Shown here one piece after another: positions 1,466 to 17,566 of a stretch of DNA of 37,664 bases. The notes under the pieces are model-generated. The model was given only the letters and a program-made list of their open reading frames with translations. It was not told where the DNA came from and made no database searches. This stretch comes from Escherichia phage T7, in sequence record AY264776.1. One strand, given 5' to 3'. The translations under genes and the position numbers were made by a program. The stretch's first letter is position 1. Every line of letters starts with the position of its first letter.

Positions 1466-1471
1466 GAAGTA

Positions 1472-1556
1472 ATGTATATGGACTGATAGTCTTATCTTAC
1501 AGGTCATTTGCGGGTGGCCTGAATAGGTACGATTTACTAACTGAAAGAGGCACTAA
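1472..1556 (+). other. Deletion scar: first codons of gene 0.5 (atgtatatg) joined to the sequence immediately upstream of gene 1; genes 0.5, 0.6, 0.7 absent
   Basis: Gene 0.4 is followed after ~150 bp by the RNA polymerase gene; no kinase (0.7) ORF anywhere in the window. Confidence 0.8.
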
Positions 1557-4208
1557 ATGAACACGATTAACATTGCTAAGAACGACTTCTCTGACATCGA
1601 ACTGGCTGCTATCCCGTTCAACACTCTGGCTGACCATTACGGTGAGCGTTTAGCTCGCGAACAGTTGGCTCTTGAACATGAGTCTTACGAGATGGGTGAA
1701 GCACGCTTCCGCAAGATGTTTGAGCGTCAACTTAAAGCTGGTGAGGTTGCGGATAACGCTGCCGCCAAGCCTCTCATCACTACCCTACTCCCTAAGATGA
1801 TTGCACGCATCAACGACTGGTTTGAGGAAGTGAAAGCTAAGCGCGGCAAGCGTCCGACAGCCTTCCAGTTTCTGCAAGAAATCAAGCCGGAAGCCGTAGC
1901 GTACATCACCATTAAAACCACTCTGGCTTGCCTAACCAGTGCTGACAATATAACCGTTCAGGCTGTAGCAAGCGCAATCGGTCGGGCCATTGAGGACGAG
2001 GCTCGCTTCGGTCGTATCCGTGACCTTGAAGCTAAGCACTTCAAGAAAAACGTTGAGGAACAACTCAACAAGCGCGTAGGGCACGTCTACAAGAAAGCAT
2101 TTATGCAAGTTGTCGAGGCTGACATGCTCTCTAAGGGTCTACTCGGTGGCGAGGCGTGGTCTTCGTGGCATAAGGAAGACTCTATTCATGTAGGAGTACG
2201 CTGCATCGAGATGCTCATTGAGTCAACCGGAATGGTTAGCTTACACCGCCAAAATGCTGGCGTAGTAGGTCAAGACTCTGAGACTATCGAACTCGCACCT
2301 GAATACGCTGAGGCTATCGCAACCCGTGCAGGTGCGCTGGCTGGCATTTCTCCAATGTTCCAACCTTGCGTAATTCCTTCTAAGCCGTGGACTGGCATTA
2401 CTGGTGGTGGCTATTGGGCTAACGGTCGTCGTCCTCTGGCGCTGGTGCGTACTCACAGTAAGAAAGCACTGATGCGCTACGAAAACGTTTACATGCCTGA
2501 GGTGTACAAAGCGATTAACATTGCGCAAAACACCGCATGGAAAATCAACAAGAAAGTCCTAGCGGTCGCCAACGTAATTACCAAGTGGAAGCATTGTCCG
2601 GTCGAGGACATCCCTGCGATTGAGCGTGAAGAACTCCCGATGAAACCGAAAGACATCGACATGAATCCTGAGGCTCTCACCGCGTGGAAACGTGCTGCCG
2701 CTGCTGTGTACCGCAAGGACAAGGCTCGCAAATCTCGCCGTATCAACCTTGAGTTCATGCTTGAGCAAGCCAATAAGTTTGCTAACCATAAGGCCATCTG
2801 GTTCCCTTACAACATGGACTGGCGCGGTCGTGTTTACGCTGTGTCAATGTTCAACCCGCAAGGTAACGATATGACCAAAGGACTGCTTACGCTGGCGAAA
2901 GGTAAACCAATCGGTAAGGAAGGTTACTACTGGCTGAAAATCCACGGTGCAAACTGTGCGGGTGTCGATAAGGTTCCGTTCCCTGAGCGCATCAAGTTCA
3001 TTGAGGAAAACCACGAGAACATCATGGCTTGTGCTAAGTCTCCACTGGAGAACACTTGGTGGGCTGAGCAAAATTCTCCGTTCTGCTTCCTTGCGTTCTG
3101 CTTTGAGTACGCTGGAGTACAGCACCACGGCCTGAGCTATAACTGCTCCCTTCCGCTGGCGTTTGACGGGTCTTGCTCTGGCATCCAGCACTTCTCCGCG
3201 ATGCTCCGAGATGAGGTAGGTGGTCGCGCGGTTAACTTGCTTCCTAGTGAAACCGTTCAGGACATCTACGGGATTGTTGCTAAAAAAGTCAACGAGATTC
3301 TACAAGCAGACGCAATCAATGGGACTGATAACGAAGTAGTTACCGTGACCGATGAGAACACTGGTGAAATCTCTGAGAAAATCAAACTGGGCACTAAGGC
3401 ACTGGCTGGTCAATGGCTGGCTTACGGTGTTACTCGCAGTGTGACTAAGCGTTCAGTCATGACGCTGGCTTACGGGTCCAAAGAGTTCGGCTTCCGTCAA
3501 CAAGTGCTAGAAGATACCATTCAGCCAGCTATTGATTCCGGCAAGGGTCTGATGTTCACTCAGCCGAATCAGGCTGCTGGATACATGGCTAAGCTGATTT
3601 GGGAATCTGTGAGCGTGACGGTGGTAGCTGCGGTTGAAGCAATGAACTGGCTTAAGTCTGCTGCTAAGCTGCTGGCTGCTGAGGTCAAAGATAAGAAGAC
3701 TGGAGAGATTCTTCGCAAGCGTTGCGCTGTGCATTGGGTAACTCCTGATGGTTTCCCTGTGTGGCAGGAATACAAGAAGCCTATTCAGACGCGCTTGAAC
3801 CTGATGTTCCTCGGTCAGTTCCGCTTACAGCCTACCATTAATACCAACAAAGATAGCGAGATTGATGCACACAAACAGGAGTCTGGTATCGCTCCTAACT
3901 TTGTACACAGTCAAGACGGTAGCCATCTTCGTAAGACTGTAGTGTGGGCACACGAGAAGTACGGAATCGAATCTTTTGCACTGATTCACGACTCCTTCGG
4001 TACCATTCCGGCTGACGCTGCGAACCTGTGCAAAGCAGTGCGCGAAACTATGGTTGACACATATGAGTCTTGTGATGTACTGGCTGATTTCTACGACCAG
4101 TTCGCTGACCAGTTGCACGAGTCTCAATTGGACAAAATGCCAGCACTTCCGGCTAAAGGTAACTTGAACCTCCGTGACATCTTAGAGTCGGACTTCGCGT
4201 TCGCGTAA
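1557..4208 (+). CDS. 1: T7 DNA-directed RNA polymerase
   Basis: 883 aa; catalytic HDSFG motif and C-terminal FAFA present. Confidence 0.98.
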   Translation: MNTINIAKNDFSDIELAAIPFNTLADHYGERLAREQLALEHESYEMGEARFRKMFERQLKAGEVADNAAAKPLITTLLPKMIARINDWFEEVKAKRGKRPTAFQFLQEIKPEAVAYITIKTTLACLTSADNITVQAVASAIGRAIEDEARFGRIRDLEAKHFKKNVEEQLNKRVGHVYKKAFMQVVEADMLSKGLLGGEAWSSWHKEDSIHVGVRCIEMLIESTGMVSLHRQNAGVVGQDSETIELAPEYAEAIATRAGALAGISPMFQPCVIPSKPWTGITGGGYWANGRRPLALVRTHSKKALMRYENVYMPEVYKAINIAQNTAWKINKKVLAVANVITKWKHCPVEDIPAIEREELPMKPKDIDMNPEALTAWKRAAAAVYRKDKARKSRRINLEFMLEQANKFANHKAIWFPYNMDWRGRVYAVSMFNPQGNDMTKGLLTLAKGKPIGKEGYYWLKIHGANCAGVDKVPFPERIKFIEENHENIMACAKSPLENTWWAEQNSPFCFLAFCFEYAGVQHHGLSYNCSLPLAFDGSCSGIQHFSAMLRDEVGGRAVNLLPSETVQDIYGIVAKKVNEILQADAINGTDNEVVTVTDENTGEISEKIKLGTKALAGQWLAYGVTRSVTKRSVMTLAYGSKEFGFRQQVLEDTIQPAIDSGKGLMFTQPNQAAGYMAKLIWESVSVTVVAAVEAMNWLKSAAKLLAAEVKDKKTGEILRKRCAVHWVTPDGFPVWQEYKKPIQTRLNLMFLGQFRLQPTINTNKDSEIDAHKQESGIAPNFVHSQDGSHLRKTVVWAHEKYGIESFALIHDSFGTIPADAANLCKAVRETMVDTYESCDVLADFYDQFADQLHESQLDKMPALPAKGNLNLRDILESDFAFA

Positions 4209-6176: not shown

Positions 6177-6269
6177 ATGATGTACTTAATGCCATTACTC
6201 ATCGTCATTGTAGGATGCCTTGCGCTCTACTGTAGCGATGATGATGATATGCCAAATGGTCACGCTTAA
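6177..6269 (+). CDS. 1.5: T7 gene 1.5 small protein
   Basis: 30-codon ORF MMYLMPLLIVIVGCLALYCSDDDDMPNGHA; contains a GAT x4 repeat. Confidence 0.7.
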   Translation: MMYLMPLLIVIVGCLALYCSDDDDMPNGHA

Positions 6270-6555: not shown

Positions 6556-7134
6556 TGGGACTGTTAGATGGTGAAGTCTGGGAAAAAAACCCGCCAGTAC
6601 AAGCAACTGGATGTATAGCTTGCTTAGAGAAAGATGACCGTTATCCACACATCTGTAACAAAGGAGCTAACGATATGACTGAACGTGAACAAGAGATGAT
6701 CATTAAGTTGATAGACAATAATGAAGGTCGCCCAAATGATTTGAATGGCTGCGGTATTCTCTGCTCCAATGTCCCTTGCCACTTCTGCCCCACAAATAAC
6801 GATCAAAAGATAACTTTAGGTGAAATCCGAGCGATGGACCCACGTAAACCACATCTGAATAAACCTGAGGTAACTCCTACAGATGACCAGCCTTCCGCTG
6901 AGACAATCGAAGGTGTCACTAAGCCTTCCCACTACATGCTGTTTGACGACATTGAGGCTATCGAAGTGATTGCTCGTTCAATGACCGTTGAGCAGTTCAA
7001 GGGATACTGCTTCGGTAACATCTTAAAGTACAGACTACGTGCTGGTAAGAAGTCAGAGTTAGCGTACTTAGAGAAAGACCTAGCGAAAGCAGACTTCTAT
7101 AAAGAACTCTTTGAGAAACATAAGGATAAATGTT

Positions 7135-9976: not shown

Positions 9977-11709
<1,733 letters not shown>

Positions 11710-12312: not shown

Positions 12313-12720
12313 ATGCGTGACCCTAAAGTTATCCAAGCAGAAATCGCTAAACTGGAAGTTGAACTGGAGGACGTTAAGTACCATGAAGCTAAGACTCGCT
12401 CCGCTGTTCACATCTTGAAAAACTTAGGCTGGACTTGGACAAGACAGACTGGCTGAAAGAAACCAGAAGTTACCAAGTTGAGTCATAAGGTGTTCGATAA
12501 GGACACTATGACCCACATCAAGGCTGGTGATTGGGTTAAGGTTGACATGGGAATTGTTGGTGGATACGACTACGTCCGCTCAGTTAGTGACAAATATGCA
12601 CAAATGTCATACATCACAGATGTTACTCCACGCGGTGCAATCGTTACCGATAAGACCAACATGATTCACACAGATTTCTTGACAGTTGTTTCATATGAAG
12701 AGATTGTTAAGTCACGATAA
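12313..12720 (+). pseudogene. 4.7: Gene 4.7 interrupted by an in-frame opal (TGA) codon at 12454-12456
   Basis: Two same-frame ORFs (12313..12456 and 12478..12720) together span 408 nt, the length of T7 gene 4.7 (135 aa); junction reads ...TRQTG*KKPEVTKLSHK... Confidence 0.8.
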
Positions 12721-12738: not shown

Positions 12739-14853
12739 ATGATCGTTTCTGACATCGAAGCTAACGCCCTCTTAGAGAGCGTCACTAAGTGCCACTGCGG
12801 GGTTATCTACGACTACTCCACCGCTGAGTACGTAAGCTACCGTCCGAGTGACTTCGGTGCGTATCTGGATGCGCTGGAAGCCGAGGTTGCACGAGGCGGT
12901 CTTATTGTGTTCCACAACGGTCACAAGTATGACGTTCCTGCATTGACCAAACTGGCAAAGTTGCAATTGAACCGAGAGTTCCACCTTCCTCGTGAGAACT
13001 GTATTGACACCCTTGTGTTGTCACGTTTGATTCATTCCAACCTCAAGGACACCGATATGAGTCTTCTGCGTTCCGGCAAATTGCCCGGAAAACGCTTTGG
13101 GTCTCACACTTTGGAGGCGTGGGGTTATCGCTTAGGCGAGATGAAGGGTGAATACAAAGACGACTTTAAGCGTATGCTTGAAGAGCAGGGTGAAGAATAC
13201 GTTGACGGAATGGAGTGGTGGAACTTCAACGAAGAGATGATGGACTATAACGTTCAGGACGTTGTGGTAACTAAAGCTCTTCTTGAGAAGCTACTCTCTG
13301 ACAAACATTACTTCCCTCCTGAGATTGACTTTACGGACATAGGATACACTACGTTCTGGTCAGAATCCCTTGAGGCCGTTGACATTGAACATCGTGCTGC
13401 ATGGATGCTCGCTAAACAAGAGCGCAACGGGTTCCCGTTTGACACAAAAGCAATCGAAGAGTTGTACGTAGAGTTAGCTTCTCGCCGCTCTGAGTTGCTC
13501 CGTAAATTGACCGAAACGTTCGGCTCGTGGTATCAGCCTAAAGGTGGCACTGAGATGTTCTGCCATCCGCGAACAGATAAGCCACTACCTAAATACCCTC
13601 GCATTAAGACACCTAAAGTTGGTGGTATCTTTAAGAAGCCTAAGAACAAGGCACAGCGAGAAGGCCGTGAGCCTTGCGAACTTGATACCCGCGAGTACGT
13701 TGCTGGTGCTCCTTATACCCCAGTTGAACATGTTGTGTTTAACCCTTCGTCTCGTGACCACATTCAGAAGAAACTCCAAGAGGCTGGGTGGGTCCCGACC
13801 AAGTACACCGATAAGGGTGCTCCTGTGGTGGACGATGAGGTACTCGAAGGAGTACGTGTAGATGACCCTGAGAAGCAAGCCGCTATCGACCTCATTAAAG
13901 AGTACTTGATGATTCAGAAGCGAATCGGACAGTCTGCTGAGGGAGACAAAGCATGGCTTCGTTATGTTGCTGAGGATGGTAAGATTCATGGTTCTGTTAA
14001 CCCTAATGGAGCAGTTACGGGTCGTGCGACCCATGCGTTCCCAAACCTTGCGCAAATTCCGAGTGTACGTTCTCCTTATGGAGAGCAGTGTCGCGCTGCT
14101 TTTGGCGCTGAGCACCATTTGGATGGGATAACTGGTAAGCCTTGGGTTCAGGCTGGCATCGACGCATCCGGTCTTGAGCTACGCTGCTTGGCTCACTTCA
14201 TGGCTCGCTTTGATAACGGCGAGTACGCTCACGAGATTCTTAACGGCGACATCCACACTAAGAACCAGATAGCTGCTGAACTACCTACCCGAGATAACGC
14301 TAAGACATTCATCTATGGGTTCCTCTATGGTGCTGGTGATGAGAAGATTGGACAGATTGTTGGTGCTGGTAAAGAGCGCGGTAAGGAACTCAAGAAGAAA
14401 TTCCTTAAGAACACCCCCGCGATTGCAGCACTCCGCGAGTCTATCCAACAGACACTTGTCGAGTCCTTTCAATGGGTAGCTGGTGAGCAACAAGTCAAGT
14501 GGAAACGCCGCTGGATTAAAGGTCTGGATGGTCGTAAGATACACGTTCGTAGTCCTCACGCTGCCTTGAATACCCTACTGCAATCTGCTGGTGCTCTCAT
14601 CTGCAAACTGTGGATTATCAAGACCGAAGAGATGCTCGTAGAGAAAGGCTTGAAGCATGGCTGGGATGGGGACTTTGCGTACATGGCATGGGTACATGAT
14701 GAAATCCAAGTAGGCTGCCGTACCGAAGAGATTGCTCAGGTGGTCATTGAGACCGCACAAGAAGCGATGCGCTGGGTTGGAGATCACTGGAACTTCCGGT
14801 GTCTTCTGGATACCGAAGGTAAGATGGGTCTTAATTGGGCGATTTGCCACTGA
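12739..14853 (+). CDS. 5: T7 DNA polymerase
   Basis: 704 aa; exonuclease D5/E7 motif, polymerase motifs DASGLELR and HDE intact. Confidence 0.98.
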
Positions 14854-14868
14854 TACAGGAGGCTACTC

Positions 14869-15249
14869 ATGAACGAAAGACACTTAACAGGTGCTGCTTC
14901 TGAAATGCTAGTAGCCTACAAATTTACCAAAGCTGGGTACACTGTCTATTACTCTATGCTGACTCAGAGTAAAGAGGACTTGGTTGTATGTAAGGATGGT
15001 AAATTTAGTAAGGTTCAGGTTAAAACAGCTACAACGGTTCAAACCAACACAGGAGATGCCAAGCAGGTTAGGCTAGGTGAATGCGGTAGGTCCGAATATA
15101 AGGATGGAGACTTTGACATTCTTGCAGTTGTGGTTGACGAAGATGTGCTTATTTTCACATGGGACGAAGTAAAAGGTAAGACATCCATGTGTGTCGGCAA
15201 GAGAAACAAAGGCATAAAACTAGAGGAGAAACTTAATGGCACTTCTTGA
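14869..15249 (+). CDS. 5.3: Gene 5.3 fused in frame to the last ~8-9 codons of gene 5.9 (deletion of 5.5, 5.7 and most of 5.9)
   Basis: 126-aa ORF starting MNERHLTGAASEMLVAYKF (gp5.3) and ending ...EEKLNGTS (gp5.9 C-terminus), overlapping the gene 6 start as 5.9 does in T7. Confidence 0.75.
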   Translation: MNERHLTGAASEMLVAYKFTKAGYTVYYSMLTQSKEDLVVCKDGKFSKVQVKTATTVQTNTGDAKQVRLGECGRSEYKDGDFDILAVVVDEDVLIFTWDEVKGKTSMCVGKRNKGIKLEEKLNGTS

Positions 15250-16138
15250 CCTTAAACAATTCTATGAGTTACGTGAAGGCTGCGACGACAAGAGTATCCT
15301 TGTGATGGACGGCGACTGGCTGGTCTTCCAAGCTATGAGTGCTGCTGAGTTTGATGCCTCTTGGGAGGAAGAGATTTGGCACCGATGCTGTGACCACGCT
15401 AAGGCCCGTCAGATTCTTGAGGATTCCATTAAGTCCTACGAGACCCGTAAGAAGGCTTGGGCAGGTGCTCCAATTGTCCTTGCGTTCACCGATAGTGTTA
15501 ACTGGCGTAAAGAACTGGTTGACCCGAACTATAAGACTAACCGTAAGGCCGTGAAGAAACCTGTAGGGTACTTTGAGTTCCTTGATGCTCTCTTTGAGCG
15601 CGAAGAGTTCTATTGCATCCGTGAGCCTATGCTTGAGGGTGATGACGTTATGGGAGTTATTGCTTCCAATCCGTCTGCCTTCGGTGCTCGTAAGGCTGTA
15701 ATCATCTCTTGCGATAAGGACTTTAAGACCATTCCTAACTGTGACTTCCTGTGGTGTACCACTGGTAACATCCTGATTCAGACCGAAGAGTCCGCTGACT
15801 GGTGGCACCTTTTCCAGACCATCAAGGGTGACATCACTGATGGTTACTCAGGGATTGCTGGATGGGGTGATACCGCCGAGGACTTCTTGAATAACCCGTT
15901 CATAATCGAGCCTAAAACGTCTGTGCTTAAGTCCGGTAAGAACAAAGGCCAAGAGGTTACTAAATGGATTAAACGCGATCCTGAGCCTCATGAGACGCTT
16001 TGGGACTGCATTAAGTCCATTGGCGCGAAGGCTGGTATGACCGAAGAGGATATTATCAAGCAGGGCCAAATGGCTCGAATTCTACGGTTCAACGAGTACA
16101 ACTTTATTGACAAGGAGATTTACCTGTGGAGACCGTAG
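15236..16138 (+). CDS. 6: 5'-3' exonuclease gp6
   Basis: 300 aa MALLDLKQFYELREG... Confidence 0.97.
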   Translation: MALLDLKQFYELREGCDDKSILVMDGDWLVFQAMSAAEFDASWEEEIWHRCCDHAKARQILEDSIKSYETRKKAWAGAPIVLAFTDSVNWRKELVDPNYKTNRKAVKKPVGYFEFLDALFEREEFYCIREPMLEGDDVMGVIASNPSAFGARKAVIISCDKDFKTIPNCDFLWCTTGNILIQTEESADWWHLFQTIKGDITDGYSGIAGWGDTAEDFLNNPFIIEPKTSVLKSGKNKGQEVTKWIKRDPEPHETLWDCIKSIGAKAGMTEEDIIKQGQMARILRFNEYNFIDKEIYLWRP

Positions 16139-16336: not shown

Positions 16337-16591
16337 ATGTTAACACCTATTAACCAATTACTTAAGAACCCTAACGATATTCCAGATGTACCTCGTGCAA
16401 CCGCTGAGTATCTACAGGTTCGATTCAACTATGCGTACCTCGAAGCGTCTGGTCATATAGGACTTATGCGTGCTAATGATTGTAGTGAGGCCCACATCTT
16501 GGGTTTCATTCAGGGCCTACAATATGCCTCTAACGTCATTGACGAGATTGAGTTACGCAAGGAACAACTAAGAAATGATGAGGAGAATTGA
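16337..16591 (+). CDS. 6.5: T7 gene 6.5 protein
   Basis: 84-aa ORF. Confidence 0.85.
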
Positions 16592-16595
16592 CACT

Positions 16596-16862
16596 ATGTG
16601 TTTCTCACCGAAAATTAAAACTCCGAAGATGGATACCAATCAGATTCGAGCCGTTGAGCCAACGCCTCTGACCCAAGAAGTGTCAAGCGTGGAGTTCGGT
16701 GGGTCTTCTGATGAGACGGATACCGAGGGCACCGAAGTGTCTGGACGCAAAGGCCTCAAGGTCGAACGTGATGATTCCGTAACGAAGTCTAAAGCCAGCG
16801 GCAATGGCTCCGCTCGTATGAAATCTTCCATCCGTAAGTCCGCATTTGGAGGTAAGAAGTGA
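16596..16862 (+). CDS. 6.7: Gene 6.7 virion protein
   Basis: 88 aa from ATG 16596 (MCFSPKIKTPKMDTNQIRAV...). Confidence 0.85.
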   Translation: MCFSPKIKTPKMDTNQIRAVEPTPLTQEVSSVEFGGSSDETDTEGTEVSGRKGLKVERDDSVTKSKASGNGSARMKSSIRKSAFGGKK

Positions 16863-17263
16863 TGTCTGAGTTCACATGTGTGGAGGCTAAGAGTCGCTTC
16901 CGTGCAATCCGGTGGACTGTGGAACACCTTGGGTTGCCTAAAGGATTCGAAGAACACTTTGTGGGCTACAGCCTCTACGTAGACGAAGTGATGGACATGT
17001 TTGGTTGCCGTGAAGAGTACATTCTGGACTCTACCGGAAAACATGTAGCGTACTTCGCGTGGTGCGTAAGCTGTGACATTCACCACAAAGGAGACATTCT
17101 GGATGTAACATCCGTTGTCATTAATCCTGAGGCAGACTCTAAGGGCTTACAGCGATTCCTAGCGAAACGCTTTAAGTACCTTGCGGAACTCCACGATTGC
17201 GATTGGGTGTCTCGTTGTAAACATGAAAGCGAGACAATGCGTGTATACTTTAAGGAGGTATAA
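16862..17263 (+). CDS. 7: Gene 7 protein (host range / virion)
   Basis: 133 aa from ATG 16862; the ORF track begins at an upstream GTG. Confidence 0.85.
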   Translation: MSEFTCVEAKSRFRAIRWTVEHLGLPKGFEEHFVGYSLYVDEVMDMFGCREEYILDSTGKHVAYFAWCVSCDIHHKGDILDVTSVVINPEADSKGLQRFLAKRFKYLAELHDCDWVSRCKHESETMRVYFKEV

Positions 17264-17266
17264 GTT

Positions 17267-17566
17267 ATGGATATGAAAGTTAAGAAGGCCGTGAAGAAAG
17301 TCGCCAAGTTCGTTAAGAAAGTCGTTAAGGAAGGGGCTCGTCCGGTTACACAGGTTGCTGGCGGTCTAGCTGGTCTGGCTGGTGGTACTGGTGAAGCACA
17401 GATGGTGAAAGTACCACAAGCTGCCGCACAGATTGTTGACGTACCTGAGAAAGAGGTTTCCACTGAGGACGAAGCACAGACAGAAAGCGGACGCAAGAAA
17501 GCTCGTGCTGGCGGTAAGAAATCCTTGAGTGTAGCCCGTAGCTCCGGTAGCGGTATCAACATTTAA
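17267..17566 (+). CDS. 7.3: Gene 7.3 tail-associated protein
   Basis: 99 aa, Lys/Ala-rich MDMKVKKAVKKVAKFVKKVVKEG... Confidence 0.9.
   Translation: MDMKVKKAVKKVAKFVKKVVKEGARPVTQVAGGLAGLAGGTGEAQMVKVPQAAAQIVDVPEKEVSTEDEAQTESGRKKARAGGKKSLSVARSSGSGINI

Follow-up and report, generated by a model that had tools for sequence, protein, structure and literature searches.

Directly downstream of the DNA polymerase gene, the window (the whole stretch of DNA analysed here, a complete T7-type genome of 37,664 bp) carries an open reading frame (ORF) that begins as gene 5.3 and ends as gene 5.9. The ORF list, tblastn and translation define it, and the features of the locus are listed below, with their T7 equivalents where these apply.

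12739 to 14853, + strand: gene 5 (DNA polymerase), intact, adjoining the fusion ORF on its upstream side
14869 to 15249, + strand: fusion ORF of 126 aa, with an ATG start and a TGA stop
14869 to 15222, + strand: part derived from gene 5.3, codons 1-118, equivalent to T7 16483-16836
15218 to 15222, + strand: deletion junction, pentamer AACTA, with parental copies at T7 16832-16836 and 17486-17490
15218 to 15231, + strand: surviving hybrid copy of the 14-nt repeat AACTA[T/G]AGGAGAAA, carrying the downstream (G) allele
15223 to 15249, + strand: remnant of gene 5.9, codons 45-52 and TGA stop, equivalent to T7 17491-17517
15223 to 15228, + strand: Shine-Dalgarno sequence of gene 6, GAGGAG, intact, 7 nt upstream of the ATG and identical to T7 17491-17496
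15236 to 16138, + strand: gene 6 (exonuclease), intact, 300 aa, 98.3% identical to T7 gp6

The original prediction for this locus, made from the DNA letters, described an in-frame 5.3::5.9 fusion whose last residues, EEKLNGTS, are the C-terminus of gp5.9. Both tblastn and alignment agree with it: the ORF encodes residues 1-118 of gp5.3, followed by residues 45-52 of gp5.9 (EEKLNGTS) and the 5.9 stop codon. With T7 gp5.3 as the tblastn query, 118 of 118 residues aligned to 14869-15222 at 98.3% identity (E=2e-76), and this part differs from the wild type by P29S and G71E. The gp5.9 match in the window is limited to residues 43-52, at 15217-15246 (tblastn). At the junction, one leucine serves as both Leu118 of gp5.3 and Leu44 of gp5.9, and the last eight codons of 5.9 are identical to those of wild-type T7.

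The fusion is a complete gp5.3 with an eight-residue C-terminal tail. Gene 5.3 is annotated as a hypothetical protein in the T7 RefSeq record. Residues 5-97 of the fusion protein correspond to the Pfam domain PF11645 (PDDEXK_5, PD-(D/E)XK_5), with a score of 36 bits against a cutoff of 26.1, and the added tail (residues 119-126) falls outside this domain. An exact look-up of the fusion protein sequence among about 15 billion proteins found no match. The fusion protein arose incidentally and most likely behaves as an ordinary gp5.3. We would label the ORF as gene 5.3 with a C-terminal extension caused by the 5.5-5.9 deletion, and not as a new gene.

On its downstream side the fusion ORF, ending at 15249, overlaps the start of gene 6 (15236) by 14 nt, the same overlap as in the wild type (T7 17504/17517), so that the predicted retention of this arrangement holds. 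As parts of the wild-type block 5.3-5.5-5.7-5.9-6 (NC_001604, 16483-18406), gene 6, its Shine-Dalgarno sequence and the 14-nt overlap are unchanged in the window, which differs from that block in lacking both 16837-17490 and the 5.3 stop codon. The gene 6 product carries the same five substitutions as that of T7 isolate K, a close relative described below.

A 654-bp deletion between two direct repeats

In a three-way MAFFT alignment of the window, T7 (NC_001604) and isolate K (AY264775), the window shows a single gap of 654 nt, between T7 16832 and 17486. As AACTA is present at both ends, this gap is the same as a deletion of T7 16837-17490. The missing segment is therefore exactly 654 bp long, a length that the original prediction had given as approximate and that BLAST and the three-way alignment both return; because 654 is 3 x 218, the deletion is in frame. 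The gap is a deterministic outcome of the alignment, in which chance plays no part. Comparison with T7 16483-17520 likewise displays the deletion, and not an intact native gene.

Both endpoints sit in a 14-nt direct repeat, AACTA[T/G]AGGAGAAA, the copies of which are identical at 13 of 14 positions. A direct-repeat search of isolate K located the pair at 15988-16001 and 16642-16655 (AACTATAGGAGAAA / AACTAGAGGAGAAA; 93% identical), the starts of the two being exactly 654 nt apart, and this pair is the best long, near-perfect direct repeat within the 1.1-kb region of that genome. The upstream copy is the ribosome-binding region of gene 5.5, and the downstream one that of gene 6. The parental sequence reads ...GGCATAAAACTA|TAGGAGAAATTATTATGGC from the end of 5.3 to the start of 5.5, and ...GTAGCGGAACTA|GAGGAGAAACTTAATGGC from the end of 5.9 to the start of 6, while the window reads GGCATAAAACTAGAGGAGAAACTTAATGGC across the junction. 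The bases to the left of the pentamer (AAAA) are of the 5.3 type and those to its right (GAGGAGAAAC) are of the 5.9 type, with no inserted or foreign bases between them in the sequence comparison. The locus thus has the features of a deletion mediated by direct repeats, namely that both endpoints lie in a repeat whose spacing equals the deletion length (654) and that a single hybrid copy is kept at the junction.

To judge from these flanking bases, the crossover must fall within AACTA, to the left of the repeat mismatch; the pentamer (15218-15222) lies inside the interval of about 15210-15225 that had been estimated beforehand. With the downstream G at the mismatch, the TAG stop codon of 5.3 becomes GAG and gp5.3 reads on. 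A crossover to the right of the mismatch would give the same 654-bp deletion with the 5.3 stop kept, and the fusion is therefore a side effect.

The event may be pictured as a spontaneous deletion between the translation-initiation repeats of gene 5.5 and gene 6, 654 bp apart. Slipped mispairing or single-strand annealing would be the likely route, and annealing stimulated by a break is also possible. Resolution of the exchange in the first five bases of the repeat would leave G, and not T, at the mismatch; the TAG stop of 5.3 would then be destroyed, and gp5.3 would continue through the last eight codons of 5.9.

Deletions of this kind between short direct repeats have been described in T7 (Studier 1979; Kong and Masker 1994, both as cited in PMC5630979). 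Like these spontaneous deletions, the one in the window has its endpoints in a short repeat, keeps one hybrid copy and removes only non-essential genes. The best-known recurrent T7 deletions affect the early region, genes 0.3-0.7, whereas the present one lies in the class II DNA-metabolism region and, unlike those of the early region, uses two ribosome-binding sites as its repeat.

A deliberate in-frame knockout of 5.5-5.9 would also account for a deletion that is in frame and that neatly keeps the ribosome-binding site and overlap of gene 6. The junction, however, carries no restriction site, linker or scar, and its endpoints are the best natural direct repeat of the region, with a spacing equal to the deletion size. 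The hundreds of random mutations and the second repeat-bounded deletion of this genome, described in the next section, are moreover typical of evolution experiments. We consider engineering very improbable.

A mutagenised laboratory lineage related to isolate K

Of 50,697 phage records, the window matches AY264775.1 ("Enterobacteria phage T7 isolate K") best, with 99.9% identity, while wild-type T7 records are about 99% identical to the window. Relative to the wild type, the window and isolate K have 384 substitutions in common, out of the 386 real substitutions of K. These shared changes are dominated by GC>AT (364/384, 95%), a bias that has been reported for T7 treated with nitrosoguanidine or hydroxylamine (PMC6042481). 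The K lineage has been heavily mutagenised, and its spectrum is that of an alkylating mutagen.

The 18 substitutions private to the window (against two real ones private to K) are of a different kind. Only three of them are GC>AT (3/18 versus 364/384; Fisher p=3e-15), and the ratio of nonsynonymous to synonymous changes is 15:1, compared with 188:156 among the shared ones (Fisher p=0.0014). This pattern indicates a later, non-mutagenic and selective phase. Two deletions are likewise found in the window but not in K, the 654-bp one and an enlargement of a deletion in the early region. We also observed that eight of the 18 private changes are A:T>C:G transversions (T>G three times, A>C five times), 15 of the 18 being nonsynonymous; example private sites are 4030, 11666, 12791, 17349, 20072, 25636, 32711 and 34203. 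Selection for compensatory changes, or a mutT-like bias of the later passage host, could explain this excess.

Isolate K presumably is a member of the Hillis/Bull nitrosoguanidine T7 lineages, and we take it to be a terminal lineage of that phylogeny. In the work of Bull et al. in 2003, isolate K was reportedly sequenced and later re-adapted for fitness recovery. It is almost certain that the genome stems from an evolution experiment that has been published. On the simplest reading of the sequence comparison, the window would be a descendant of K, or of a near-identical sibling of K, after mutagen-free growth under selection. The original prediction had not recognised this background, and it makes the deletion unremarkable, because the genome is that of a mutagenised laboratory lineage.

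Several smaller features are common to the two genomes. Besides P29S and G71E in gp5.3, they share a W48* nonsense codon in gene 4.7 (window 12313-12720) and two in-frame 3-nt indels, an insertion in gene 1.5 (window 6237-6240) and a deletion in gene 1.7 (window 6585-6586). Isolate K keeps the 654 bp, whereas the window lacks them and has its 18 extra substitutions. At T7 304 (G>A) and 362 (T>G), which are window 280 and 338, K differs from both the wild type and the window; these sites either reverted in the window or are private to the sequenced K clone. The window begins 24 nt inside the T7 terminal repeat and stops 5 nt short at the right; K likewise lacks these 24 nt at the left but is full length at the right. 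The window also contains six Ns (for example at 10477, 10633, 20375, 25678, 35600 and 35660). The ambiguous bases are consistent with an older genome sequence obtained by primer walking.

The second deletion (window 1466-1486) removes about 1590 bp of the early region, T7 ~1505-3094, comprising genes 0.5, 0.6 and 0.7; the corresponding deletion in K is 820 bp. Its junction lies within the repeat GTAATGT(A/T)(T/A)ATG. In K, a mutagen-induced C>T at T7 3084 (GCAATGT to GTAATGT) had lengthened the homology of this repeat. The junction leaves a four-codon mini-ORF, ATG TAT ATG GAC TGA, in which the 0.5 start is in frame with the 0.7 end, and a probe across it had no match in public data. As this deletion also falls in a short direct repeat, it provides a precedent for repeat-mediated deletion in the same genome.

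With these comparisons in hand, a sequencing or assembly artefact, or alternatively an intact native gene of a natural T7 relative, is the least probable account of the 654-bp gap, which we regard as hardly credible. The six Ns do reveal imperfect sequencing, and the junction occurs in no independent record: with a 101-nt junction probe searched against the 50,697 phage records, none covered at least 80% of the probe. A 14-nt repeat is nevertheless far too short for assembly collapse, and both flanks align without error. As to a native gene, the closest relatives all have the 654 bp, and the mutation spectrum is that of laboratory-mutagenised T7, not of a wild phage; the alignments and the retention of the segment in relatives rule out this second possibility. 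We are highly confident that the window represents a laboratory T7 lineage that descends from K, or from a phage almost identical to the ancestor of K, and that underwent a spontaneous, repeat-bounded deletion of 654 bp with an incidental readthrough fusion.

Isolate K also informs on the state of the genes before their removal. It carries the nonsense codons W13* in 5.9 and W52* in 5.7, both G>A, and its record annotates 5.7 and 5.9 only as "similar to"; gene 5.5 is still open in K, with four changes. As the window has 384 of the 386 real K substitutions, W13* and W52* were almost certainly present in its ancestor as well. The deletion would then probably have removed mainly two dead genes, together with 5.5, the sole still-open gene lost. 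The RecBCD inhibitor was thus probably lost before the deletion took place, a deduction drawn from K, as the nonsense sites are inside the deleted segment. Gene 4.7, mentioned above, adds a third non-essential gene that the mutagen has inactivated and that is not yet deleted.

Lost functions and persistence of the deletion

Genes 5.5 and 5.7 are deleted in full, and gene 5.9 loses its codons 1-44; with them goes the frameshift product of 5.5-5.7. In tblastn searches, gp5.5 and gp5.7 were absent throughout the window (best E values of 2.6 and 0.2), and the deleted DNA, as a blastn query, had no matches in the window beyond stretches of 13-15 nt attributable to chance. The forecast loss of 5.5, 5.7 and most of 5.9 is therefore real. 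No promoter, terminator or other regulatory feature is annotated in T7 between phi4.7 (13915) and phi6.5 (18545), so that the loss concerns coding sequence only.

The three lost proteins all act on host functions. The product of 5.5 binds H-NS and is required on lambda lysogens (PMC11482910; V01146 annotation), and gp5.7 is an inhibitor of transcription by sigma-S RNA polymerase that is sensed by some defence systems (PMC11482910). The third, gp5.9, is a coiled-coil DNA mimic that blocks RecBCD and has been modelled for residues 1-49; its fold is a parallel coiled-coil dimer with an N-terminal beta-strand and an acidic surface (PMC9836394). It blocks MukBEF too (PMC7617805), and it triggers the retron Ec48 (bioRxiv 10.1101/2020.06.21.156273). 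The eight C-terminal residues of gp5.9 (45-52) that alone remain here, against a fold built from residues 1-49, cannot form the DNA mimic, and the phage is without gp5.5 and functional gp5.9, as anticipated.

Genes 5.5, 5.7 and 5.9 are non-essential or needed only conditionally, and are dispensable on ordinary laboratory hosts (PMC11482910; PMC9825161). The phage is therefore expected to be viable, and its existence agrees with this. A comparable situation is found in the gp5.9 L23P escapers of retron Ec48, in which the RecBCD inhibitor is lost and the phage is viable, as here (bioRxiv 10.1101/2020.06.21.156273). In contrast to these escapers, 5.9 has been physically deleted in the window except for eight codons, together with 5.5 and 5.7, and the first hit was likely a mutagen-induced nonsense codon, with no selection by a defence system.

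Why such a deletion was kept can be explained in several ways. The one that we rank first, and hold to be somewhat better than an even bet, is that the loss was near-neutral or slightly beneficial and rose by drift, through a bottleneck or by hitch-hiking; a possible gain would be a shorter genome that no longer spends resources on truncated or damaged proteins. In K, two of the three genes are already pseudogenes, all three are dispensable on standard laboratory hosts, and 654 bp amounts to 1.7% of the genome. Early-region deletions, furthermore, are repeatedly fixed in laboratory T7 lines (PMC8923235; PMC6042481). Against this, the segment is kept at no less than 99% identity in 106 T7-type records, so that loss of the block is not routine in laboratory passage, and the window branch as a whole has been under strong selection. 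The genomes keeping the segment include some as small as 36.6 kb, in the series MZ375233-MZ375294. We assume this series to be the CiPGr genome-reduction set, although the accession prefix is absent from the text of the CiPGr paper.

The selection on this branch leaves room for another possibility, which we find rather unlikely but well above engineering or artefact: that the deletion was compensatory and positively selected. The nonsense codons in 5.7 and 5.9 of K would break the overlapping 5.5-5.7-5.9-6 translation chain, so that some 107 nt ahead of the gene 6 start would go untranslated and expression of the essential exonuclease would fall; by bringing 5.3 up to the gene 6 start, the deletion would restore translational coupling. 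The nonsense codons of K do sit upstream of gene 6, and the deletion arose on a branch rich in nonsynonymous, apparently adaptive changes. Yet gene 6 has its own strong GAGGAG site, and K is viable despite its nonsense codons. The fusion itself is not required for such an effect, as the alternative exchange product, in which the TAG is kept 11 nt ahead of the ATG, would probably allow coupling too.

RNA folding around the gene 6 start served as a check on the coupling idea. The predicted unpaired probability of the gene 6 Shine-Dalgarno sequence is 0.67-0.71 in the window, versus 0.42-0.50 in the wild type and K, but this result varies with the stretch folded, and the accessibility of the AUG was opposite in one setting (0.22 versus 0.67). 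Being stretch-dependent and inconsistent at the AUG, the folding was rejected as evidence either way. If the compensatory explanation were true, repeated Shine-Dalgarno regions would act as built-in recombination sites that excise damaged cassettes while downstream expression is kept.

Every gene and protein concerned is already known, as is this type of event, and the finding is an ordinary one, with slight significance beyond correct annotation. The genome nonetheless represents a natural triple knockout of gp5.5, gp5.7 and gp5.9. From this triple loss, we would predict that the phage does not grow on lambda lysogens, that it does not trigger retron Ec48 or the defences that sense gp5.7, such as RADAR2, and that it leaves RecBCD and MukBEF uninhibited. 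For the biology of T7, it exemplifies how short repeats allow the phage to lose non-essential genes, and how a gene may acquire nonsense mutations before it is physically lost.
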